NCBI GenBank assembly: GCA_963809485.1
Contig: CAWEJX010000021.1
Location: 50,894 to 114,893 of the forward strand
DNA length: 64,000 bases
From: an uncultured Acidobacteriota bacterium
GTDB taxonomy: Bacteria; Acidobacteriota; UBA6911
Direction: 5' to 3'
Shown piece by piece: positions 20,855 to 61,924 of the stretch (positions are counted from its first letter, which is position 1; each line of letters begins with the position of its first letter). A model generated the notes under the pieces. That model was given only the letters and a program-made list of their open reading frames with translations, did not search any database and was not told where the DNA came from. The translations under genes and the position numbers were made by a program.

Positions 20855-21156
20855 CCCTTCCCGGCGCAGGAAGTAACCGTTTGATCGTTTTCATGAGCCA
20901 AACGATGCATTGACCGATAGATTCCGTAAAACGCGTCCTGCTCGGCAACTGTGAGATTTCCGCGACCATAGAAGAATTTGAAGGCGTATTCACGATCAAT
21001 TGGAGGCACAGGAATCGGCAGGACATGATGCAGGGCATTCGAGTTCGCTACAATTTGTACTTTCGCGATGCTCACTCGAAGGGCCGAAAGTACTGACCAT
21101 AACCTTGTGATTACATCGTTCAGCTGAACGGAAGTATTTTTTGTAAGGGTAAGCAA
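20851..21156 (-). CDS. hypothetical protein
   Basis: 101-aa ORF overlapping the downstream ORF by 4 bp. No family recognised. Confidence 0.35.
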   Translation of the reverse strand: MLTLTKNTSVQLNDVITRLWSVLSALRVSIAKVQIVANSNALHHVLPIPVPPIDREYAFKFFYGRGNLTVAEQDAFYGIYRSMHRLAHENDQTVTSCAGKG

Positions 21157-27022: not shown

Positions 27023-27733
27023 CTATTTTGCCGGAGGAGGCATTTTGCTTTGGATCCTTGGCTTCCCTTTCTCAGAGGATCCGTCCGATTCGATAAAGAT
27101 ATATTTGTCCCGCATATTTTCAGGCACCAGATTCCTGAAAGGCGTTTCAACAGACTTCGGTGAGTACTGGGTGTCGATAAATAGGAACGGCCGGGTCACT
27201 TTCGTCACCCGGAACGGGCAGTGGATGAAATTGCCGGGTATGTATATCAGCGCGGGCTTGTTCACCACGTGCTTCTCCATCTCCGGACCCATATAAACTT
27301 CGAACTCCGCACCTAATTCATGCGGATGATCCGGGTCCGTGCCCAGCGCTACAACCACTTCGGGATCTCGATGTTTATGCGGACCATGGCCGGCAATTTT
27401 CGTGGCCGATTCTCCCATCAACATCGCGGAGAAGAAATGGCTTCCCTCGATAATGTCGTCATCGCAAAAAACCAGAAACCTGTTTTTTAGTGCGCCGTAT
27501 CCGATCTCCAGTTCTTCCGGTTTCAACTCCGACGTGAAATATTTTCGGTACTTCAATTCTCCCGGCGCCGAGGCCTGAACCCGCGGATTGGGCGCGGCAA
27601 TCAGCCCGCCGCCAGACTGTGTCATCGCCGAGTGGATCGCGCCGGCAGCGATAGCTCCTGCAGCTCCTGCGGCGATTTCCTTTACGAATCCTCTACGCGT
27701 AGTATTTTGGGGATCGATCCTGATCAGACTCAT
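27023..27733 (-). CDS. Tat-signal protein, cupin-like C-terminal half
   Basis: TRRGFVKEIAAGAAGAIAAGA looks like a twin-arginine leader. The His-rich segment GHGPHKHRDPE...HPHE follows. Confidence 0.6.
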   Translation of the reverse strand: MSLIRIDPQNTTRRGFVKEIAAGAAGAIAAGAIHSAMTQSGGGLIAAPNPRVQASAPGELKYRKYFTSELKPEELEIGYGALKNRFLVFCDDDIIEGSHFFSAMLMGESATKIAGHGPHKHRDPEVVVALGTDPDHPHELGAEFEVYMGPEMEKHVVNKPALIYIPGNFIHCPFRVTKVTRPFLFIDTQYSPKSVETPFRNLVPENMRDKYIFIESDGSSEKGKPRIQSKMPPPAK

Positions 27734-46040: not shown

Positions 46041-46611
46041 TCAGTAGAGCTTAAAGAACAATGTCCTCCCGCGCCCGGTGGCGCCTCCTGTATCCGGATC
46101 GAATACCATCATGGGTTTACTGTCTTTGCGATCTACCGCAAACGCAACCCATCCTTCGACGGAACTAGCCCGGTTTGATCTTGCCGACCAAAGCAGGCTG
46201 GGGCACTGTTACCGATACCCTCGGGTATTCGGTCAAATCCGACGCCAGGGCGACCCACTGAAGCGGAGCGTCGCCGAGATCAAAGAGGAGGGTGTCGGTG
46301 ACGGCTCTCCCTTTAAAATCGAATTTGATGCGGGCCAGGATGTATTCAAAACCCTCGGCCGGCGCAGCGTTGCCCGCGCTGGCCGCTTTCAGCCGGTTCA
46401 TTGCTTCCGCGCCGCGAACCGCCTCAAGAACGGTGATGGTGATATCGTAAATGTTCGCATAGACGGACCCGAGTTCCACCATGGAACGCACGGGCGCGCC
46501 GATCGCGGCCGGGTTGGTCGATGAATTATCCTGCGCTATTGCGGGATGGAGAGATGCTGCAGCCATCGACAGCAATAGGGCGGTACAAAGCACAGCAGAT
46601 TTGTTTTTCAT
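46041..46611 (-). pseudogene. secreted DUF4352-like protein interrupted by one frameshift
   Basis: ORF 46165..46611 (MKNKSAVLCTALLL...) stops at TAG 46165. The +1 frame continues SSVEGWVAFAVDRKDSKPMMVFDPDTGGATGRGRTLFFKLY to 46041. The shift is at the run aaaccgggcta. Confidence 0.55.
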
Positions 46612-46624
46612 GCGATCTCTACTC

Positions 46625-48406
46625 CTATCTCCATTGATCCACGGAAGCGCTGCCCGCGTAACCGAAATCCCCGCCAGACCAGAAGGTGTTTGTTCCTCCT
46701 CCGGTGACCACAATCTCGATTGAAGTGGTGGGTTCGTTGGTATCCTTCGACGCTATGAATGCGGCATTCCTTGTTACACGGCCGCTCCTGGTGTAGCGGG
46801 ACGCGGGGACAACCGCTCCCTGGCCCTGCTTCAGCCAGCCGGCGTATGGTTCCACTCCCGACTGGGCCTGCTTCAGCTCATTCGGATGCTGGGACCAGTA
46901 CAACCACCCCGGTGTGCCCGTTTTTTCAGCAAGCCATTTGGCGAAGGCTTCCTTGGTGGGATGGCCGTTGGAAGCCACATCCGCCGCGACAATAGGATCG
47001 AGAACAAGCGTGGCCTGAGAGGTGCCGAAGGAGAAGAAATGCTCCAGCCATCCGCGGATGACCTCGTGTTGCGGCAGCGGCGAATACCAGGCGATGTCGC
47101 TCATACTCCATCCGCTGAAGAGGCTGACAGCGCTATCCGATTTCTTGAATCCTTTCTGCACATGCAGCGGATTCCAGCCGGCAGGCAATCCATCTTCCGT
47201 CTCCGGGAAACAGAGGTTGCCGTAATTCAGGGGATTCCCCTGGCTGCCCAGGTAGGTTTCACCGGGTTTCCCCGAGCCCCCGAGGTTTTTGGAGATCAGC
47301 GTCCAGCACCGGCCGATGGAAGAATTGGCGCGGCTCATTGGTCCAAGAGCGCCGATCCCCGTGTTCATATCGATCTCCTTGACCACGGGACCATTCACCA
47401 CGACCATTCTGGCGAAAGAGGAAGTGGAGCTGAACAGCGAAGTGAGCCCTTTGGATGCGATAGCCAGGATGGTTGGAAAATATTCCGGCTTCGCGCCCGC
47501 CATCACCGCATTCACGGCGACCATTTCAACGGTGTAATACCAGGCCTCGTGTGGAGGGGAGGGCCGCATCTGGCCGACCCATTCATCCGGCTTGCGGCTC
47601 GTGGCTTTCAGCATTTCTGCAACCTTCTTCTCGGTTGGCAGGATGACTGGATTCCCGTCCGTAAAGTTCTGTGCATGGAATAATGCCATGAGCTTGTCGG
47701 CGGTATTGGGTTCCAGAAGCCTGGGCCGCGGATCTCTTTTGAGAAATCCCGCTTTGCTGTCTTCGGCCGAAAGCTGCTTTGTCAATCCCTCGTAGATTTC
47801 ATCGAGCATGGGCTTGCCGGTCTCCGGATCATTGCCCGCGATATACTTGCGGCACAGGTCGGCCGGCCGGTCCGTGATCGGGTGAGGCGTGTAGGTAATC
47901 CGCATATTGGGGATTCCCTTTTTATACGAGATCGTGGTTACGAGCTCCTTGAACCTCTGCGTGATCATCGGTACGGAAGGAACGCCCATTCTTTCCAAGG
48001 TCACTGCATGGCCGACGACCGCCGGCGAGCAGCTGCTTCAATGCCCCAGCAAAACGATGGCGGCGGCATTTTTTGCTTTGATTTCCTTCCACAAGTTCGG
48101 GTCGTCATCCATGTAACCCGCGATCTTATCCCGCAGCACCCATGTGGTCTTGGGATATTTGGCTTGCAGCGCAGCAAACAGCTCGTTAACAAAAGGTTTT
48201 GTGTTCGGATACTTGGTATCCACGATGTACACGGTCCTGCCGTCCAGCGTTGCCGGACGCGTCGCCATGGGAATCTTGCGTATTTCAGGCTGAATGCCCC
48301 GCGGATTCATCACGACAATTTTTTCTTCATCCGCCGCCCATCCGAACGATGAAGCGAACGTCGCAATCAGCACAGCTATCAGAATGCCAGCCGCCTTAAT
48401 TTTCAT
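46625..48406 (-). CDS. candidate selenoprotein: UxxC redox domain fused to a large domain of unknown function (in-frame UGA at 48040..48038)
   Basis: ORFs 48038..48406 and 46625..48004 are in the same frame with no stop between them other than the TGA. The junction reads ...AAIVLLGH-U-SSCSPAVVGH.... The downstream ORF has no credible start or RBS. Confidence 0.6.
48004..48032 (-). promoter_or_regulatory. possible SECIS-like hairpin downstream of the UGA
   Basis: mRNA CUGC-UC-GCCG-[GCGGUCGU]-CGGC-CAU-GCAG starts 5 nt after the UGA. The pairing was drawn by hand only. Confidence 0.3.
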
Positions 48407-48713: not shown

Positions 48714-50145
48714 GTGAAATCACGCTCGATTCGCATTCTGCTATCACTTGCAGGTCTAGCGGCGCTGACGTTTGCGGCACACAACATTTTTCAGGTGAAC
48801 GCAACAACGGCGGGTTTCGGATACCTGTTGGTTGTGCTCGTGGTCGCAAGCAGCTGGGGATTTATCGAGGCATCCATTACCTCCATCGCGGCGACCCTCG
48901 CATTTAACTTTTTTTTCTTCCCTCCGGTTGGCACCTTCAACATTGCGGATGCCCACAATTGGGTGGCTTTGTTCAGCTTTCTTGTCACCTCGCTGATTGC
49001 CAGCCGACTGTCGACCAAGGCGAAAATGAAGGCTTTGGATGCGATCGAGCGACAGCAGGATATCGAGAGGCTTTATGCATTCAGCCGTGCCCTTCTTCTG
49101 ATAGATAACTCAGAACCGTTTGGAGCCCAACTCATCCGAAAACTGGCGGATATTTTCCAGCTGAACGCAGCGGCCCTTTACGATCGTCGATCCGGAAATT
49201 TCTTCCGTGCAGGATCATCGGAGTCTTGAAGTCCATGGATGCCCAGCTGCGTGAAACGGCATTGGACAACATCCCCGATTCAAACATCCAGCCGAACTAC
49301 TTGCTGACGCCTGTAAGGTTGGGCACCGATCCGATCGCTAGTCTCGCCGTTCAGGGTCCAAGGATGTCCGATTCCGTTCTGCAAGGCATCGCGAATCTTG
49401 TAGCCATAGGCCTGGAACGGGCAAGATCCCAGGATCTTGCCCAGCAGATAGAGGCAGCGCGACAAAGCGAACAATTGCGAACCACGCTCATCGACGCCAT
49501 GGCTCACGAGTTCAAGACTCCTCTCACATCCATAAAGGCCGCGACTACAGGGCTCCTCGCAAATCCGCGGACAGCTGACGGAAAGCCAGGTAGAGCTGCT
49601 CGATATTGCCGACGAGGACGCGGACCATTTGAAGGAACTCATCGATGACACGGTAGACATGGCACGCCTGGACACGGCTCATATAGAAATCAATCCCGAA
49701 ATTTCGGATATACTGGAGATTGTCCATGAGGTGGTTCATTCGCTGAGAACCGAACTCGAAGGGCGTCTTCTGGAAATATCTCCTGATGAAGGGAATCCGG
49801 AAAAGCGCTTTTGATCGGCGGCTGTTGAGGCTGGCAATAAAACAGTTGATTGACAATGCCGCGAAATATTCCCCGGCAGGCACGCCCCTGGAAATTCGAG
49901 TGCAACAGGATGAGAACACAATTAGTGTGGATGTCACCGATCATGGGAAAGGAATACCTGAGCGGGAACAGAAACGCATTTTTGAGCGGTTTTTCAGAAG
50001 TCCCTCCATACGGCAGCAGATACCGGGCTCCGGCCTCGGACTGAGTATTGCCCACAGCATATTGCAGGCCCATCATGGAGATTTGACCGTAACGAGCCAA
50101 CCCGGCAGGACAACATTTCATTTGACCCTGCCGGCAGAAATATAA
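48714..50145 (+). pseudogene. sensor histidine kinase (KdpD C-terminal type: DUF4118 TM domain, HisKA, HATPase_c) broken by at least 3 frameshifts
   Basis: The pieces 48714..49229, 49226..49648, 49629..49814 and 49786..50145 are in frames 0/2/0/1 and read as one protein. Features: H-box AMAHEFKTPLTSI, N-box IDNAAKYSP, G-box GSGLGLSIA. Confidence 0.75.
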
Positions 50146-50157
50146 AGGAGAATCCGG

Positions 50158-50856
50158 TTGAGCGCAGGTCGCATTCTGGTAATTGACGACGAACCTCAGA
50201 TCCGGCGTCTGATGCGGACGACACTGATCGGTGCCGGATACGAAGTGGAGGATGCCAGGACGGGAGAAGAAGGTCTCGAAAAGGTGAACACCTACCATCC
50301 GGATCTCGTGCTGCTGGATATCAATATGCCGGGGATGGGGGGCTTTCTAACCTGCGAAGCCCTGCGGGAAGACAAAAATATCGCCATTATTATGCTCACC
50401 GTGCGGGATTCCGAGGCGGACAAGGTTGCGGCGCTGGATGCCGGCGCCGATGATTTTGTCACAAAGCCTTTCAGCACTCCGGAGCTGCTGGCCCGGATAC
50501 GTGCGGCCCTCCGGCGGGTGCCGTCGCCTCAGGCATCTCCTGAAAAAATCCAGATAGGCCGTCTTGTCATTGATTTCACGGCCAGAACCGTTTCCAAAGG
50601 AGACAGACCCGTTCATCTGACGCCCAAAGAACTGGATTTGCTCCGATACTTTACGTTGCATCCAAATCACGTGATTTCACATCGGGAGCTTCTGCAGGCA
50701 GTTTGGGGCCCCGATTACGGCAATCAGGTTGATTATCTCCGGGTGTTCATCAAGAATCTGCGAAAGAAGATTGAACTCAATCCCGATAGCCCCGAATACA
50801 TCCTGACCGAACCTTGGGTGGGCTACCGGTTCAACAGTCCCCCCCAATCTTCATAA
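50158..50856 (+). CDS. kdpE: OmpR-family response regulator, KdpE-like by sequence and context
   Basis: Receiver domain (ILVIDDEPQIRR...DLVLLDINMPGMGG) plus a winged-helix output (TEPWVGYRF). It lies between the kinase and kdpFABC. Confidence 0.75.
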   Translation: MSAGRILVIDDEPQIRRLMRTTLIGAGYEVEDARTGEEGLEKVNTYHPDLVLLDINMPGMGGFLTCEALREDKNIAIIMLTVRDSEADKVAALDAGADDFVTKPFSTPELLARIRAALRRVPSPQASPEKIQIGRLVIDFTARTVSKGDRPVHLTPKELDLLRYFTLHPNHVISHRELLQAVWGPDYGNQVDYLRVFIKNLRKKIELNPDSPEYILTEPWVGYRFNSPPQSS

Positions 50857-50945
50857 AATCTTCACGGATTATCCATAGCTTTTTCCGGGCATCTCTACGG
50901 GATCTTCATGCTGTCTGGCGTATGCTTTTTGCGGAGCGAAAAGCA

Positions 50946-51029
50946 ATGCTTGATCTTTTCTATCTTGCGGTCGGCTGCATGGTCTTAGCGATTTTCTGGG
51001 CTTTGGCGAAAGCTTGCGACAAGCTCTAG
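50946..51029 (+). CDS. 27-aa hydrophobic peptide ORF upstream of kdpF (speculative)
   Basis: MLDLFYLAVGCMVLAIFWALAKACDKL has one TM-like segment. It ends 11 nt before kdpF. Confidence 0.2.
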   Translation: MLDLFYLAVGCMVLAIFWALAKACDKL

Positions 51030-51040
51030 GGAGAAATGCC

Positions 51041-51124
51041 ATGGATTGCCTCATTACCGGTCTTGCCTCTGCTGGTCTCTTTATCTACCTGCTGTATGCG
51101 CTCCTGAAACCTGAGCGCTTTTAA
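51041..51124 (+). CDS. kdpF: K+-transporting ATPase subunit F
   Basis: MDCLITGLASAGLFIYLLYALLKPERF is 27 aa with the typical KdpF C-terminal YLLYALLxPExF pattern. It sits immediately upstream of kdpA. Confidence 0.7.
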   Translation: MDCLITGLASAGLFIYLLYALLKPERF

Positions 51125-51134
51125 GGAGGATGCC

Positions 51135-52902
51135 ATGACTGGCCAGGGTGTGCTCCAGATAATGGTTTATTGTGTTGTTCTTCTTGCCCTGACGAAGCCT
51201 CTCGGCGCTTACATGGCACGGGTATACGGAGGAGAGAGAACATTCCTGCATCCAGTCCTCCATCGCCTGGAACGATTGGTATACGCCCTGGCTGGAGTTA
51301 AGGATAAGACGGAGCAGCGCTGGACCCAGTATGCAGCCTCACTCCTGGCATTCAGCATGGTTTGCTTCGTCCTGACTTATTTGATCCAGCGTTTTCAGGG
51401 ACTATTGCCACTGAACCCCGCGGGGTTCGGATCGAGGCAGGCTACGCCGGACCTGGCTTTCAACACAGCCGTCAGCTTCATGACGAACACAAACTGGCAA
51501 TCCTATCGGGGGCGAGACGACCTTGAGTTATTTTGTCCAGATGGCTGCATTGACGGTACAGAATTTTGCATCGGCCGCTGCTGGAATGTGCGTCGCAATA
51601 GCCCTGATCAGGGGTTTTGTTCGGCGGCAGCAGAACACCATCGGGAACTTCTGGGTCGACCTTGTGCGAGGAATTGTTTATATCCTTTTGCCACTCGCTT
51701 TGATCGGAGCTCTTTTTCTCTGCTCCCAGGGTGTGGTTCAAAACTTCAATGCGTTCACAACCGCTAGGACACTTGAAGGCAGCATCCAAACAATTGCGCA
51801 GGGGCCCGCGGCTTCCCAGGTTTCCATCAAGCAGTTGGGTACAAATGGGGGCGGCTTTTTCAACGCCAACTCCGCTCATCCTTATGAGAACCCGACTCCC
51901 CTCGCCAATTTCGTGGAAACTCTATTCATTCTATTGATACCCGCCGGGCTGGTTTACACCTTCGGAATCATGGTAGGAGACACCCGCCAGGGATGGGCTC
52001 TTTATGCTGCAATGAGTCTTTTGTTTCTTGCCGGCGTTTTCATCTGTTACCCGGCCGAACAATCGGGCAATGCCAATCTACCCGCATTGGGGGTTCAAAA
52101 CGATCCCGCCTACTTGCAGCCCGGCGGCAATATGGAGGGCAAGGAGGTGCGCTTCGGCATCGCCCCCTCGGCGCTTTGGGCGGTAGCAACCACGGCGGCA
52201 AGCAATGGCAGCATCAACAGCATGCTGGACAGTTTTACGCCACTCGGCGGATTGATCCCGCTGTTCAACATTCAAACGGGCGAAGTCATCTTTGGCGGCG
52301 CCGGAGCAGGTCTATATGGAATGCTCCTGTTCGCCATTCTTGCCGTCTTCATTGCGGGCCTCATGGTCGGACGCACGCCGGAATATCTTGGCAAAAAGAT
52401 CGAAGGCAAGGAAGTCAAAATGGCAATGCTCGCTCTGATTGCTTGCGCCGTCGGAATTCTTGTATTTACCGCGATCAGCGCACAAATCGACTTTGCCAAA
52501 AACAGTTACTGGAACAGCCCGGGAGCGGCCGCGGAGAACTTGTCGAATAGCGGCCCGCACGGACTTTCGGAAATGCTCTATGCCTACTCGAGCGCTACCG
52601 GCAATAATGGCAGCGCTTTCGCCGGACTGAATTCAAATACTCCCTGGTACAACCTGACTACGGGTCTGGCAATGCTCATCGGGCGCTTTCTCGTAATTAT
52701 CCCGATGCTGGCAATAGCCGGAAACCTGGCAATGAAAAAAGCCGTGCCCGCAACAAGCGGGACAATTCCAACCCATGGCCCACTCTTCGTCGGTCTGCTG
52801 GTGGGCACCGTGGTCATTGTAGGAGCGTTGACTTTCTTCCCGGCTCTCTCTCTGACACCCATTGTTGAGCATTTGCTGATGAATAGCGGTCATCTTTTCT
52901 AA
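51135..52902 (+). pseudogene. kdpA: K+-transporting ATPase subunit A, one frameshift
   Basis: 51135..51767 and 51523..52902 together read as KdpA (...[16 protein letters not shown] / [15 protein letters not shown]...). The shift is at the run tatcgggggcgag near 51505..51520. Confidence 0.85.
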
Positions 52903-52927
52903 TCGATCTCCAAATGGGGATGAAATA

Positions 52928-55060
52928 ATGGCTACCAGGACTGCCACTCCAAGACCCAAACAGCTGGTTCCTCAGAATGAACCTGCTTCACTGCTTCCCG
53001 AAAAGCTTGTCAGATCACGGCCGCTCTTTGATACTGAGATCGTGATGCGTGCCATCCGTGCATCCTTTCTGAAACTGAATCCGGTCACCCTGGTGAGGAA
53101 TCCAGTGATCTTCGTGGCTGAAGTCGGCGCTGCCCTGATCACAATGTTCCTGATTCGTGATTTCATCACAGGCGGTTCGGGAATCGGGTTCTCATTCCAG
53201 ATCTCCCTATGGCTCTGGTTCACGGTGCTGTTTGCCAACTTTGCTGAGGCAATGGCCGAAGCACGCGGAAAGGCTCAGGCTGACGCTCTCCGGAAAACAA
53301 AAACGGATGCGCCGGCAAAGAAGTTGGGATCCGGTGGGAAGGTATTGCAAGTCCCCAGTTCCGCATTGCGAGCCGGGGATGTGGTGCTCTGCGAGGCGGG
53401 CGACCTGATTCCGGGAGACGGAGAGGTGATCGAAGGTATCGCAACGGTTGATGAATCCGTGATTACGGGTGAAAGTGCACCCGTCATTCGCGAATCGGGA
53501 GGTGACCGCAGCGCCGTGACCGGCGGCACCAAGGTGCTATCGGACAAGATCAAAGTCCGTATTACCTCAAATCCGGGAGAAACGTTTCTGGATCGCATGA
53601 TTGCACTGGTCGAGGGCGCGGAGCGGCAGAAGACTCCCAATGAAATCGCCCTGAATATCCTGATCGCGGGCCTGACTCTGATATTCCTGCTGGCGGTTGT
53701 TACGCTCCAGCCTTATGCGGTTTTCAGCGTTGCGCAATCAGGCAGGGGAACGGTTCCGAGCGTGACTGTTCTGGTTTCTTTGCTTGTCTGTCTGATACCT
53801 ACGACCATCGGGGGGCTTTTATCCGCCATCGGCATCGCCGGCATGGACCGGGTCATGCAGCACAACGTGCTGGCGCTTAGCGGCAAGGCGGTTGAAGCTG
53901 CGGGAGATGTCAACTCTCTCCTGCTGGACAAAACCGGGACCATTACGCTCGGGAATCGGCAGGCTGTTGAGTTTCTTTCCCGTTAACGGCATCAGCGCAG
54001 CCGAACTGGCGGATGCCGCTCAATTGTCCAGCCTGGCTGACGAGACGCCCGAAGGCCGTTCCATCGTTGTGCTTGCGAAAGAGAAATATGGCCTTCGGGG
54101 CCGGCATATTCCCGGAAGATGACGCGAATTCATCCCCTTCTCTGCCTTTACGCGCATGAGCGGTGTCGATTTCGAAGGGTCGCCGCCTTCGGAAAGGAGC
54201 CACGGATGCAATCTGCAAATATGTGCGCGAAAACGGGGGACAGGTCGCCGGCGATATCCAGGAAATGAGCGATCGAATTGCGCGCAATGGAGGAACCCCG
54301 CTTGCCGTGGCCGACGGAAAACGGTTGCTTGGGATCATCCATTTGAAAGATATCGTGAAGGGCGGAATGAAGGAACGGATCAGCTCAACTGCGACGCATG
54401 GGCATTCGCACGGTCATGATTACCGGCGACAATCCGCTCACCGCGGCCGCAATCGCAGGCGAGGCCGGCGTGGATGATTTTATTGCGCAGGCAACACCAA
54501 AAGCCAAGCTCGATTACATCAAAAAAGAGCAGGCAGCCGGCCGGCTTGTCGCGATGACGGGGGATGGCACCAACGATGCCCCGGCTTTGGCGCAGGCCGA
54601 CGTCGGGCTCGCGATGAATACCGGCACAATGGCTGCGAAGGAAGCAGGCAATATGGTGGATCTGGACAGCAATCCGACCAAGCTTATCGAGGTTGTTGCC
54701 ATCGGGAAGCAGTTGCTGATTACCCGTGGTGCTCTGACTACTTTTTCCATCGCCAACGATATTGCCAAGTATTTCGCAATCATTCCCGCCATGTTCATGA
54801 CGACCTATCCGGCCCTCAGCGCACTAAACATAATGGGGTTGCACACTCCGCAGAGCGCGGTACTTTCAGCAGTGATCTTCAACGCGCTGATCATCATCGC
54901 GCTGGTTCCGCTTGCGCTGCGCGGGGTGAAGTATCGTCCCGTCGATGCCGCCGGCCTGCTGCGCCGGAACCTGCTGATCTATGGGCTGGGCGGAATCATC
55001 GCTCCTTTCCCTGGAATTTGGCTTATTGATCAAATCGTTCATGCGCTGGGCTGGGCCTGA
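52928..55060 (+). pseudogene. kdpB: K+-transporting P-type ATPase subunit B, about five indels
   Basis: The pieces 52928..53986 (DKTGTIT), 53892..54122, 54156..54419/54163..54477 and 54398..55060 ([18 protein letters not shown]) read as one KdpB once single-nt shifts are allowed near 53975, 54115, 54135, 54180 and 54385. Confidence 0.85.
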
Positions 55061-55071
55061 TTGGAGAAGAT

Positions 55072-55704
55072 ATGCTAAAGCAATTGGTCCCCGGATTCCG
55101 AATTGCTCTGGTTTTGACAATCCTCACGGGCGTGCTTTATCCCGGCATCGTGACCGGGCTTTGCCAATTGCTTTTTCGCCAGCAGGCAAATGGAAGTCTG
55201 ATTGTGAAGGATGGCCGTGTTGCTGGTTCCAGCCTCATCGGCCAGAACTTCACCCGGCCGGAATATTTCCATCCGCGTCCTTCTGCGGCAGGCAGCGATG
55301 GATATGATGCTTCATCCTCCGGAGGATCGAATCTGGGTCCGACCAGCCGGAAACTGATCGATCGTATCAAGCGCGATATTGAGGTGTTCCGCAAAGAGAA
55401 TCCCGAATATCAGGGCCCGATTCCGGCTGATATCGTGACCGCATCCGGCAGTGGCCTGGATCCCCACATCAGTCCGGCATCCGCTCAGGCACAGGCGCTT
55501 CGAGTCGCAAAGGCCCGCGGAGTGTCGGCAGATCAGGTGAACCGGCTGATCGCGCAAAATATCGAAGCCCCAACGCTGGGATTCCTCGGGGATGCGCGGG
55601 TGAACGTATTGAAGCTTAACCTTGCGCTTGACCGCATTTCCCATCGTCCGGCGCTTCCGTTGCAGGGCTATAATCCTATTTATGAGCCGCAAAATTCGAC
55701 GTAA
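55072..55704 (+). CDS. kdpC: K+-transporting ATPase subunit C
   Basis: 210 aa, intact, with a typical KdpC N-terminal TM segment and the [14 protein letters not shown] motif. Confidence 0.85.
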
Positions 55705-56768
55705 GACACCCGATGAATTGCTGCATGAATTGCAGCCCGAAAGCTCAGGCGCGAAAGGTCACCTGAAGATATTCCTCGGATATGCATCGGGCGTCGGCAA
55801 ATCATTCCGGATGCTCGATGAAGCGCGCCGGCGCAAAGAGAGAGGGCAGGACGTTGTGGTGGGGGCAGTTCAGCCGGAAGGTCTCGCCGGAAGTTCAGAA
55901 GCTATTGGATAGGCTTGAGATCGTGCCCCTGATAAAATATCCCGTCGGGCATATCCATGGATATCGACGGCATCATGACGGCGACATCCTGCCGTCTGTG
56001 TCATCGATGGCCTCGCCTTTAACAATCCTCCGGGACTCCGCAATCCAACCCGCTGGCAGGATGCACGGGATCTGGTGAATGCCGGAATAAAGGTTCTCGG
56101 GTCCATCAACATTCAATACGTGGAAGAATTGTGCCAGACGGTGGAAGAACATAACCGGCAAACATGTGACTGAAACCGTGCCTGTATCCTTCATAAAGAG
56201 CGCCGACGAAATTGAAATCGTGGATGCTCCGCCAGAAGAGCCGATCGAGAGATCGCCGGAGCAACAGACGAAGACAGAGGTTCGCCAGCAACAGCTTTCT
56301 GTTTTGCGGGAATTGGCCCTCGTTCTGGCGGCAGATGTTGTCGATTGCCAGCTGAGCGATTATCTGGAGAAGCACGGAATAAGGCAAAGCTTCGGAGCAC
56401 AGGAAAGAATTCTTGTCTGCATCACCCCGCGCGCGAATGCCAGGGAGATGATCGAAACTGCCCGAATGATTGCGGAAAAATTCCATGCGGAAATGACTGT
56501 GGCCTATGTGAAACAGGCGGAGCTTTCAGAAGAAGATCAAGCGGCGCTTGAAGAAAAACTTGCGCTGGCAAGGTCGGCAAAAGCACAGATAGAAATTCTG
56601 GAAGGAGAGGATGCGGTAGAGGCGATACTCCATTATGCAAATTCCCATGCCATTACGCAGCTCTTCGTCGGGCACACTCAGAGCACAAGAAAATGGCCCT
56701 GGAGTGATCCGGTCGAGAAACTGATCCGTCGATCGCATGGTATGGATCTGCGCATCTTTCCACAGTGA
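55682..56768 (+). pseudogene. KdpD N-terminal sensor domain + Usp domain protein, paralog 1, several frameshifts
   Basis: [14 protein letters not shown]...LKIFLGYASGVGKSFRML (P-loop-like), then the pieces 55782..56078 and 56166..56768 in other frames. The start overlaps the kdpC end. Confidence 0.7.
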
Positions 56769-56781
56769 GTCAACGGCATCC

Positions 56782-57895
56782 ATGACGAATACAGATCGTG
56801 GGAAGCTGAAACTTTACATGGGATATGCGGCGGGCGTCGGAAAGACCTACAGGATGCTCGAAGATGCCCAGGCGCTTAAGGCTCAAGGTGTAGATGTCGT
56901 CATCGGCTATTTTGAACCTCATGGCCGTGCAGGCCACGATTGAAAAAACCGAAGGACTGGAGACCGTTCCAAGGGCAAAAGTACATTATCGAGGATCGGT
57001 GTTTGAGGAGATGGATACGGACGCCATCCTGGATCGGCGTCCCCTCTTATGCCTGGTCGACGAGTTTGCCCATACCAATGTTCCAGGATCTTCCCGCACT
57101 AAACGCTGGGAGGATATTGAAATATTGCGCGACGCCGGAATCGATATCTGGACGACTATGAACATACAGCACCTGGAAAGCCTGAATGATCAGGTCCGGC
57201 AGATCGCGGGAATCCGGGTGCGGGAAACTGTTCCGGATTGGGTTGTGCAACAGGCCGACGAGGTCGTCATTATCGATCTCTCACCCCGGGCGCTCCTGCA
57301 TCGCCTGGAAAGGGGAGTGATTTACGGCCGGGAAAATGTGGAACGCGCCCTGCAGAACTTCTTCCGTGAATCCACGCTGGTGGCCCTCCGGGAATTGGCG
57401 CTGCGCGAAACCGCCCTCGAGATAAAGCAACGCGTGATCAAGGATGAAGCCGCAACGATCCCGAAGTCCTCCGATCCGAATCAGGCTGGAAATCACAAAA
57501 TTCTGCTGTTTTTGACTGCAGATCCGAGCACCGCAATGCTGATCCGCCGTGCCAGGCGTGTCGGAGATTTCCTGGGGGCCGAATGCTTTGCCGTGGCAGT
57601 AAACACTACAGCTGATTTGAACCGGATGACAAATTCGAACCGGGAAGCCATCGAGCGGCATGTGAATTTTGCGCGCAATATGCGGATTGAAACCCGAATA
57701 CTCGAGGGAAATGATCCGGCCCAAACACTGATAGATTTTGCGCATGAGAATCATATAACGCAGATCTTTATCTCACGCTCCCGAAAGGCATCCCAGGCTG
57801 TTTTTTCACAGCGGGGATTGCTGCAGAAGATCGTTCGCCTGGCCAGGGATATGCAGATTGTCATCGTCTCCGAGCGGGAATCCGCAACAGAGTGA
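56782..57895 (+). pseudogene. KdpD N-terminal sensor domain + Usp domain protein, paralog 2, one frameshift
   Basis: MTNTDRGKLKLYMGYAAGVGKTYRML...GYFEPHGR, then a shift near 56927 into 56894..57895 (...LVDEFAHTN...NIQHLESLND... plus Usp). Confidence 0.75.
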
Positions 57896-61204: not shown

Positions 61205-61924
61205 ATGGGGAAAAAATTTAGCAATATCGATCGCCGGGCCTTCATAAACAGTGCGGCACTGTGCCTGGCAGGCTCCGCCGCCCCTCCTGTCCGGCAGCTT
61301 TATGCCGGCCAGCTTCAGCCGACACCGCGTCAGACAGAAGGGCCTTTTTATCCGGATAAAATGCCGCCGGATACCGACAACGATCTTCTGATTATCAACG
61401 ACAGATCTGCTACCGCGGCCGGCGCGATCACGTATCTGTCCGGGCGCGTCCTTGACATACGCGGCGAGCCGGTACGCAATGCCGTCGTCGAAATCTGGCA
61501 GTGCGACAACAACGGCAGGTACATGCACATGGGGGACAATAATCCGGGAACCCGGGACATGAATTTTCAGGGGTTTGGCCGTTTCACAACCGGTCCGACC
61601 GGGGAATATTTCTTTCGTACCATCAAGCCGGTGCCCTATCCGGGACGCACACCCCATATACACCTCCTCGTCCGGGTGGGCGGAAAGCGCATGCTGACCA
61701 CGCAGGTTTACATCAAGGGTTTTCCCCAGAACGAACGCGACTTCCTTTACCGCAGCCTCAGCGCGCCGCAACTGGCTTCGGCGGATTTCAAACCCCTCGC
61801 AGGCTCGGCACAGGGTGAACTGACTGCGCATTTTGATGTTGTGCTCAGCCCGGCGCCGGAAGACCCCAGAGAAGACCGGATGCGAGATATGGATCGTCCG
61901 CAGGGAATGGGACGACGCGGATAA
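61205..61924 (+). CDS. intradiol ring-cleavage dioxygenase-like protein with Tat-type signal
   Basis: ORF 61163..61924; the start MGKKFSNIDRRAFINSAALCLAG is at 61205. Protocatechuate-dioxygenase-like pattern: EIWQCDNNGRY...GRTPHIH. Confidence 0.7.
   Translation: MGKKFSNIDRRAFINSAALCLAGSAAPPVRQLYAGQLQPTPRQTEGPFYPDKMPPDTDNDLLIINDRSATAAGAITYLSGRVLDIRGEPVRNAVVEIWQCDNNGRYMHMGDNNPGTRDMNFQGFGRFTTGPTGEYFFRTIKPVPYPGRTPHIHLLVRVGGKRMLTTQVYIKGFPQNERDFLYRSLSAPQLASADFKPLAGSAQGELTAHFDVVLSPAPEDPREDRMRDMDRPQGMGRRG

Follow-up and report, generated by a model that had tools for sequence, protein, structure and literature searches.

Single-base frameshifts across the kdp locus of an uncultured Acidobacteriota bacterium very probably reflect a local patch of consensus errors

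The kdp potassium-uptake locus was analyzed in a 64,000-nucleotide stretch of DNA, hereafter called the window, from the metagenome-assembled genome (MAG) of an uncultured Acidobacteriota bacterium. The window corresponds to positions 50894 to 114893 of contig C21 of the MAG (G000; 6.04 Mb in 21 contigs, completeness 95.7%, contamination 7.3%). The locus occupies window positions 48714 to 57895 and, according to Pfam profiles and translations, all of its genes lie on the plus strand. It carries 18 single-base insertions or deletions (indels), which are very probably uncorrected consensus or polishing errors, gathered in a local patch of a MAG of long-read type; the kdp operon of the organism itself is most probably intact and functional. 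The kdp cluster appears to be one of many insertion-biased error patches, because the same +1 signature is found genome-wide, in unrelated as well as in housekeeping genes.

Indels were called against G006, a sister species of the same genus, which has an intact syntenic locus on its contig C20. Frame changes were identified by tblastn searches of the G006 proteins against the window, and individual bases were placed by using four blocks of DNA alignment, within which the two sequences are 87-96% identical. The indels span positions 49220 to 56928 and 16 of the 18 are +1 insertions; the initial annotation, made from the letters of the window and their open reading frames (ORFs), had counted about 14, slightly fewer than emerge from the comparison. 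In G006, every kdp gene consists of one open frame (488, 232, 588, 709, 200, 360 and 385 amino acids, aa), and KdpB is encoded by an open frame of 711-725 aa in six relatives (G006, G012, G015, G018, G003 and G029). Contigs of relatives from four independent metagenomes, mapped at 90% identity and 90-96% identical to the window, were compared at a defined set of sites: they lack the insertions at 50142, 50158, 55880, 55945, 55977/8, 56147 and 56928/9, and they carry the G that is missing from the window at 55633. No indel is thus shared with another assembly: none is present in G006, in the kdpB frames of the six relatives or, at the sites listed, in the relatives' contigs.

All 18 indels are 1 nt long, and none falls within a run of three or more identical bases. 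The mean number of substitutions located within 3 nt of an indel is 0.78, against 0.42 expected. Inspection by eye of the 16 insertion contexts revealed no common motif or in-frame codon (examples of codons at the shifts are TCG|G at 49220, GTC|C at 49232 and TAT/CGG at 51505). Lesions are grouped in bursts of 4 in 570 bp, 5 in 410 bp and 5 in 515 bp, with clean gaps of up to 2.5 kb. When the contig coordinates of the indels were set against a 500-bp grid of polishing windows, no obvious 500-bp register was seen, bearing in mind that polishing itself shifts the coordinates. The retention of both alleles of a strain single-nucleotide polymorphism (SNP) would account for several of the contexts (GAAG[T]CC versus GAAGCC, for example) and is kept as a possible sub-mechanism only.

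The distribution of similar lesions in the whole genome was evaluated by a reference-free census. Coding potential was scored with a hexamer model derived from ORFs of at least 400 aa; the maximal-scoring segment of each stop-to-stop ORF was determined, and shadow segments were removed. A junction was called wherever two adjacent segments of one strand lay in different frames and the coding segment of the second began at least t nt before the stop of the upstream ORF. The procedure recovers kdp junctions at the right coordinates and returns 471 frameshift-like junctions in the genome at t>=30; raising t to 50 and to 80 lowers the number to 360 and 270. Their counts per 10-kb bin are overdispersed (variance/mean 2.2), and 23 clusters of at least 4 junctions, spanning 1.2-9.3 kb, were identified. 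The two largest, with 9 junctions each, are located at C19:10.8-20.2 kb and C20:426.8-433.6 kb, followed by one of 8 junctions at C1:131.0-135.7 kb. Among all clusters, that of kdp holds a middle rank; only 4 of its junctions are detected, since the census misses indels lying close to one another.

The junctions are strongly asymmetric. Net +1 shifts outnumber net -1 shifts by 290 to 70 at t>=50 and by 170 to 25 at t>=120, whereas ordinary gene junctions (t<15) show a +1 to -1 ratio of 227:237. Detection bias, originating from the unequal stop densities of the two off-frames, accounts for a 1.3-1.6-fold difference only. On the assumption that false positives fall equally on both signs, this excess would imply about 280 true detectable junctions. 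Junctions within 5 kb of contig ends are enriched 2.7-fold (34 observed versus 12.5 expected), an enrichment that stems from the assembly and not from a chromosome.

Comparable clusters are found on the same contig, at -38.8 kb, 71.9-76.2 kb, 112-114 kb and 121 kb in window coordinates, and at no fewer than 20 other sites of the genome. In the patch at C21:122.7-127.1 kb, just past the end of the window, ORFs intact in G006 are split, according to tblastn, at window coordinates 71884, 72660, about 73122-73375, 75033 and 76196. Genes other than those of kdp are therefore damaged as well, among them those identified in this patch by Pfam (FlpD/4Fe-4S, LarA-like and MTHFR). Elsewhere in the genome, Pfam shows splits at consecutive profile positions in three further proteins: PFOR is divided between POR and EKR, a VWA domain is split (1-91 and 104-163) and followed by YfbK_C, and a BamA-like protein, of a putative housekeeping gene, is interrupted between POTRA and POTRA-Omp85. 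A Cys_Met_Meta_PP gene on C19 is distributed over four frame pieces, corresponding to Pfam profile positions 1-138, 139-180, 181-278 and 290-352.

Two of the broken regions lie on other contigs. Within C19:10.3-20.7 kb, about 10 kb, which takes in the C19 cluster and the Cys_Met_Meta_PP gene named above, nearly all genes are broken several times; by eye, they include aldolase-like, sigma-54 regulator, PAS kinase, ProC-like and PP2C/PAS genes. A paralog of the window gene at 27026-27733, located at C9:85911-86624 (60-88% amino acid identity in pieces), shows three frame changes in about 700 nt.

These data are consistent with an assembly containing a few hundred errors, the vast majority 1-base insertions outside homopolymers, which gather in tracts of about 1-10 kb and towards the ends of contigs. 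Such patches may be places where the consensus rested on few reads, or on reads from mixed strains, and one of them, of about 8-11 kb, would cover the kdp locus by chance. Candidate proximate causes are low local coverage, a single noisy bridging read, or the retention of both alleles of strain SNPs; the sequencing platform is presumably of long-read type. Spurious frameshift pseudogenes are well documented, their counts depending on platform, assembler and coverage (Cooley & Wright 2024, PMC11017572). An excess of frameshift "pseudogenes" has been described in low-coverage long-read MAGs (Cusco et al. 2021, PMC8103633), and the Kastor tool is cited alongside for pseudogenes caused by indel errors in long-read assemblies and MAGs (PMC12007338). 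The lesions described here resemble those cases in that single-base indels break conserved genes of any function, are absent from relatives, and are worse where support is low, in this genome in patches and at contig ends. They differ from the typical cases by their strong insertion bias, by sparing homopolymers and by their accumulation in patches of about 1-10 kb, instead of affecting homopolymers throughout.

The initial annotation had taken the clustering to point to a recent relaxation of selection on the Kdp system as a whole, and had named a locally error-prone assembly region as the alternative. The former was evaluated by calculating the ratio of nonsynonymous to synonymous substitution rates (dN/dS) between window and G006, codon by codon, after removal of indel columns. 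Values of 0.16 for the histidine kinase (HK), 0.10 for kdpA, 0.08 for kdpB (C-terminal 417 codons), 0.16 for the first and 0.11 for the second KdpD-N paralog were obtained, a measure which, taken between species, has little power for very recent relaxation. No nonsense codon was found in frame in 2,238 aligned codons, in agreement with the initial reading, and no larger deletions or insertion sequence (IS) insertions are present among the kdp lesions. The substitution pattern of kdp is that of purifying selection. An operon having accumulated 18 neutral indels should also carry dozens of extra, mostly non-synonymous, substitutions and several stops, and none are seen.

A genuine pseudogenisation, in which high-affinity K+ uptake has become dispensable and the whole regulon is decaying by real frameshifts, is therefore improbable, given dN/dS values of 0.08-0.16 and the lack of nonsense codons, even if the test is weak for a very recent event. 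It does have features in its favour: multiple disabling lesions fall within one functional unit, as in genuine operon decay, with 18 indels in a functionally coherent operon and 13 kb of clean adjoining sequence. Loss of kdp does occur within the genus, as six genomes (G001, G002, G004 and G009-G011) apparently have no kdpB, showing only distant P-type ATPase matches. Bacterial pseudogenes are characterized by a deletion bias and by mixed indel sizes; here, all indels are 1 nt long and 89% are insertions. Unlike in operon decay, neither a rise of dN/dS nor nonsense codons, larger deletions or IS insertions accompany them, and identical lesions strike unrelated genes, both in other patches of the same contig and at about 300 junctions genome-wide, housekeeping genes included. 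A further frameshift, at 46166, lies outside the operon and on the opposite strand. Thus, relaxed selection on the Kdp system is not supported, and the alternative of an error-prone assembly region is the one that agrees with the patches found elsewhere on the contig and in the genome. Equally frequent indels elsewhere on the contig were what the initial annotation itself had named as contrary to its reading, and comparable clusters do occur there.

The patches might instead be biological, produced by a real localised mutational process, such as error-prone repair synthesis, which would deliver showers of +1 insertions over tracts of about 1-10 kb in a lineage or a subpopulation. The patchy, burst-like arrangement of the indels and their location at non-homopolymer sites, often with an adjoining substitution, would suit this explanation, under which the whole kdp regulon would have just been inactivated and the MAG would represent either DNA that is relic or non-viable, or a burst of mutator activity in the very recent past. 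The same process, however, would disable the BamA-like gene, PFOR, the Cys/Met pyridoxal phosphate enzyme and numerous further genes within a single consensus genome; the enrichment at contig ends belongs to the assembly, and none of these indels occurs in any relative. Insertion showers are accordingly regarded as very unlikely, and even less credence can be given to recoding, by which programmed +1 frameshifting or the reading of quadruplet codons would restore the proteins. That the shifts are nearly all +1, within well conserved flanking protein sequence, is what recoding would predict, but neither a motif nor an in-frame codon is common to the 16 insertion contexts, the proteins are encoded in relatives by unshifted frames, and kdpB alone would require five shifts within 410 nt, one of them -1. 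Quadruplet decoding of the CGGN type and decoding at slippery sites were considered and rejected, since no shared motif was seen by eye in the 16 contexts.

Several observations weigh against the assignment of the kdp indels to consensus errors. The patch coincides rather well with one functional unit, from the HK gene to the second KdpD-N paralog. The burst pattern is unlike the prediction of a simple, uniform low-coverage model, and insertion-dominated, non-homopolymer errors differ from the classic nanopore signature. At low stringency, false positives occur in the census. No indexed sequencing run contains this strain: two run searches, with the kdp region and with a flank, returned only relatives (best word share 0.18-0.22), and at identities of 98% or more, only fragments of 31-61 nt map to the region, none of them informative. 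In a KdpA scan of public genomes, with the bacterium's own genus left out, no match exceeded 73% identity, and all came from distant Acidobacteriota and other relatives.

If the sequence were accepted as it stands, an uncultured Acidobacteriota-like lineage would be taken to have lost its high-affinity K+ uptake, and pseudogene counts would be inflated as well. Inferences of pseudogenes, gene loss or selection are unsafe when drawn from this MAG or from MAGs made in a similar way, and gene calling in this genome needs frameshift-aware handling. The asymmetry between +1 and -1 shifts at same-strand frame junctions, compared with that of normal gene junctions, provides a simple diagnostic which requires no reference.

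The position of each lesion is reported in Table 1.

Table 1. Genes of the kdp locus and a neighbouring split gene, with the frame changes found in comparison with G006 (window coordinates).
Feature	Position	Strand	State and indels	Basis
HK, DUF4118-HisKA-HATPase_c (kinase half of KdpD)	48714..50145	+	4 frame pieces; +1 at 49220, 49232, 49565, 49789, 50142	Pfam; alignment to intact 488-aa G006 gene
kdpE response regulator	50158..50856	+	body intact, 232/232 aa, 97% identical to G006; +1 at 50158 in start codon context	Pfam, alignment
kdpF, 27 aa	51041..51124	+	intact	translation; Pfam Potass_KdpF, E = 1e-9
kdpA	51135..52902	+	one split, +1 at about 51505	KdpA profile positions 2-122 and 119-548 in two frames; alignment
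kdpB	52928..55060	+	+1 at 53975, 54109, 54175, 54385; -1 at 54127	tblastn and alignment
kdpC	55072..55704	+	-1 at 55633	tblastn matches to residues 1-188 of 200; alignment
KdpD-N/Usp paralog 1	55682..56768	+	+1 at 55880, 55945, 55977, 56147	tblastn, alignment, Pfam
KdpD-N/Usp paralog 2	56737..57895	+	+1 at 56928	tblastn, alignment, Pfam
DUF4352-like gene	46041..46713	-	one frameshift at about 46166	tblastn of G006 223-aa ORF: residues 1-182 in frame -1, 183-223 in frame -2

Gene by gene, the damage first read from the window alone was largely recovered. At least three shifts had been assigned to the HK gene and at least three to the first KdpD-N paralog, for which five and four were found, all of them +1; the single shift of the second paralog was located at 56928. 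The five shifts proposed for kdpB were all retrieved, within about 10 nt of the coordinates initially given. They lie within 410 bp and add up to a net +3, by which the frame is restored, both ends of the gene being read in the same frame. The one shift predicted in kdpA is present, although not at the run of five G residues where it had been placed: the insertion at 51505 lies 2-4 nt upstream of the run and outside it.

The three short genes kdpE, kdpC and kdpF had been considered intact. This holds for kdpF and for the body of kdpE, but not for the start codon context of kdpE nor for kdpC. The start codon of kdpE is GTG in the relatives and, owing to the insertion at 50158, TTG in the window. 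The deletion at 55633 rewrites the last 12 or so residues of KdpC and extends the ORF, whose true end would be expected at about 55673. Besides the kdpC tail, the lesions initially missed are the two insertions at the junction between HK and kdpE, at 50142 and 50158. At this junction (window 50130-50185), the HK ORF of G006 continues and overlaps the GTG start of kdpE; in the window, HK ends at a TAA stop that arises from the insertion at 50142, and base 50142 and base 50158 are both missing from all four of the relatives' contigs.

Outside the kdp region, the only clear frame split within the window affects the DUF4352-like gene, at 46166, some 3 kb ahead of the patch, in line with the single comparable frameshift initially reported outside the 9 kb or so of the locus. 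It probably results from the same error process, or else represents a separate single error. Ten G006 ORFs mapping to 58.3-71.4 kb in window coordinates, the last few past the 64.0-kb end, were each matched by tblastn in a single frame; clustering within the window is therefore real, and the uneven spread of the indels, already recognized in the initial annotation, was confirmed. Two low-stringency census matches in the window, at 61873 and 63787, were rejected as false positives, as they turned out to be ordinary overlapping ORFs when compared with G006. A third such match, at 20898, is weak (t=31).

The locus gathers the Kdp-specific Pfam families KdpA, KdpC, Potass_KdpF, KdpD, E1-E2_ATPase and Response_reg+Trans_reg_C, and its gene families, as assigned by Pfam, are a DUF4118-HisKA-HATPase_c kinase, KdpE, KdpF, KdpA, KdpB, KdpC and two tandem KdpD-N/Usp proteins. 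All the families of the known KdpFABC and KdpD/KdpE systems are thus represented, in canonical order: KdpE, KdpF, KdpA, KdpB (E1-E2_ATPase/Hydrolase), KdpC, KdpD sensor domain, Usp and DUF4118-HisKA-HATPase_c. Unlike in those systems, KdpD is split in the window. Its kinase half (48714-50145) is found upstream, together with kdpE, and two stand-alone KdpD-N/Usp paralogs (55682-57895) follow kdpC. As G006 shares this layout with the window, the split of KdpD is a trait of the lineage, independent of the damage.

Directly 5' of kdpF, a 27-aa hydrophobic ORF (MLDLFYLAVGCMVLAIFWALAKACDKL), matching no Pfam profile, is located at window positions 50946-51029 on the plus strand. It might encode a second small membrane peptide associated with Kdp.

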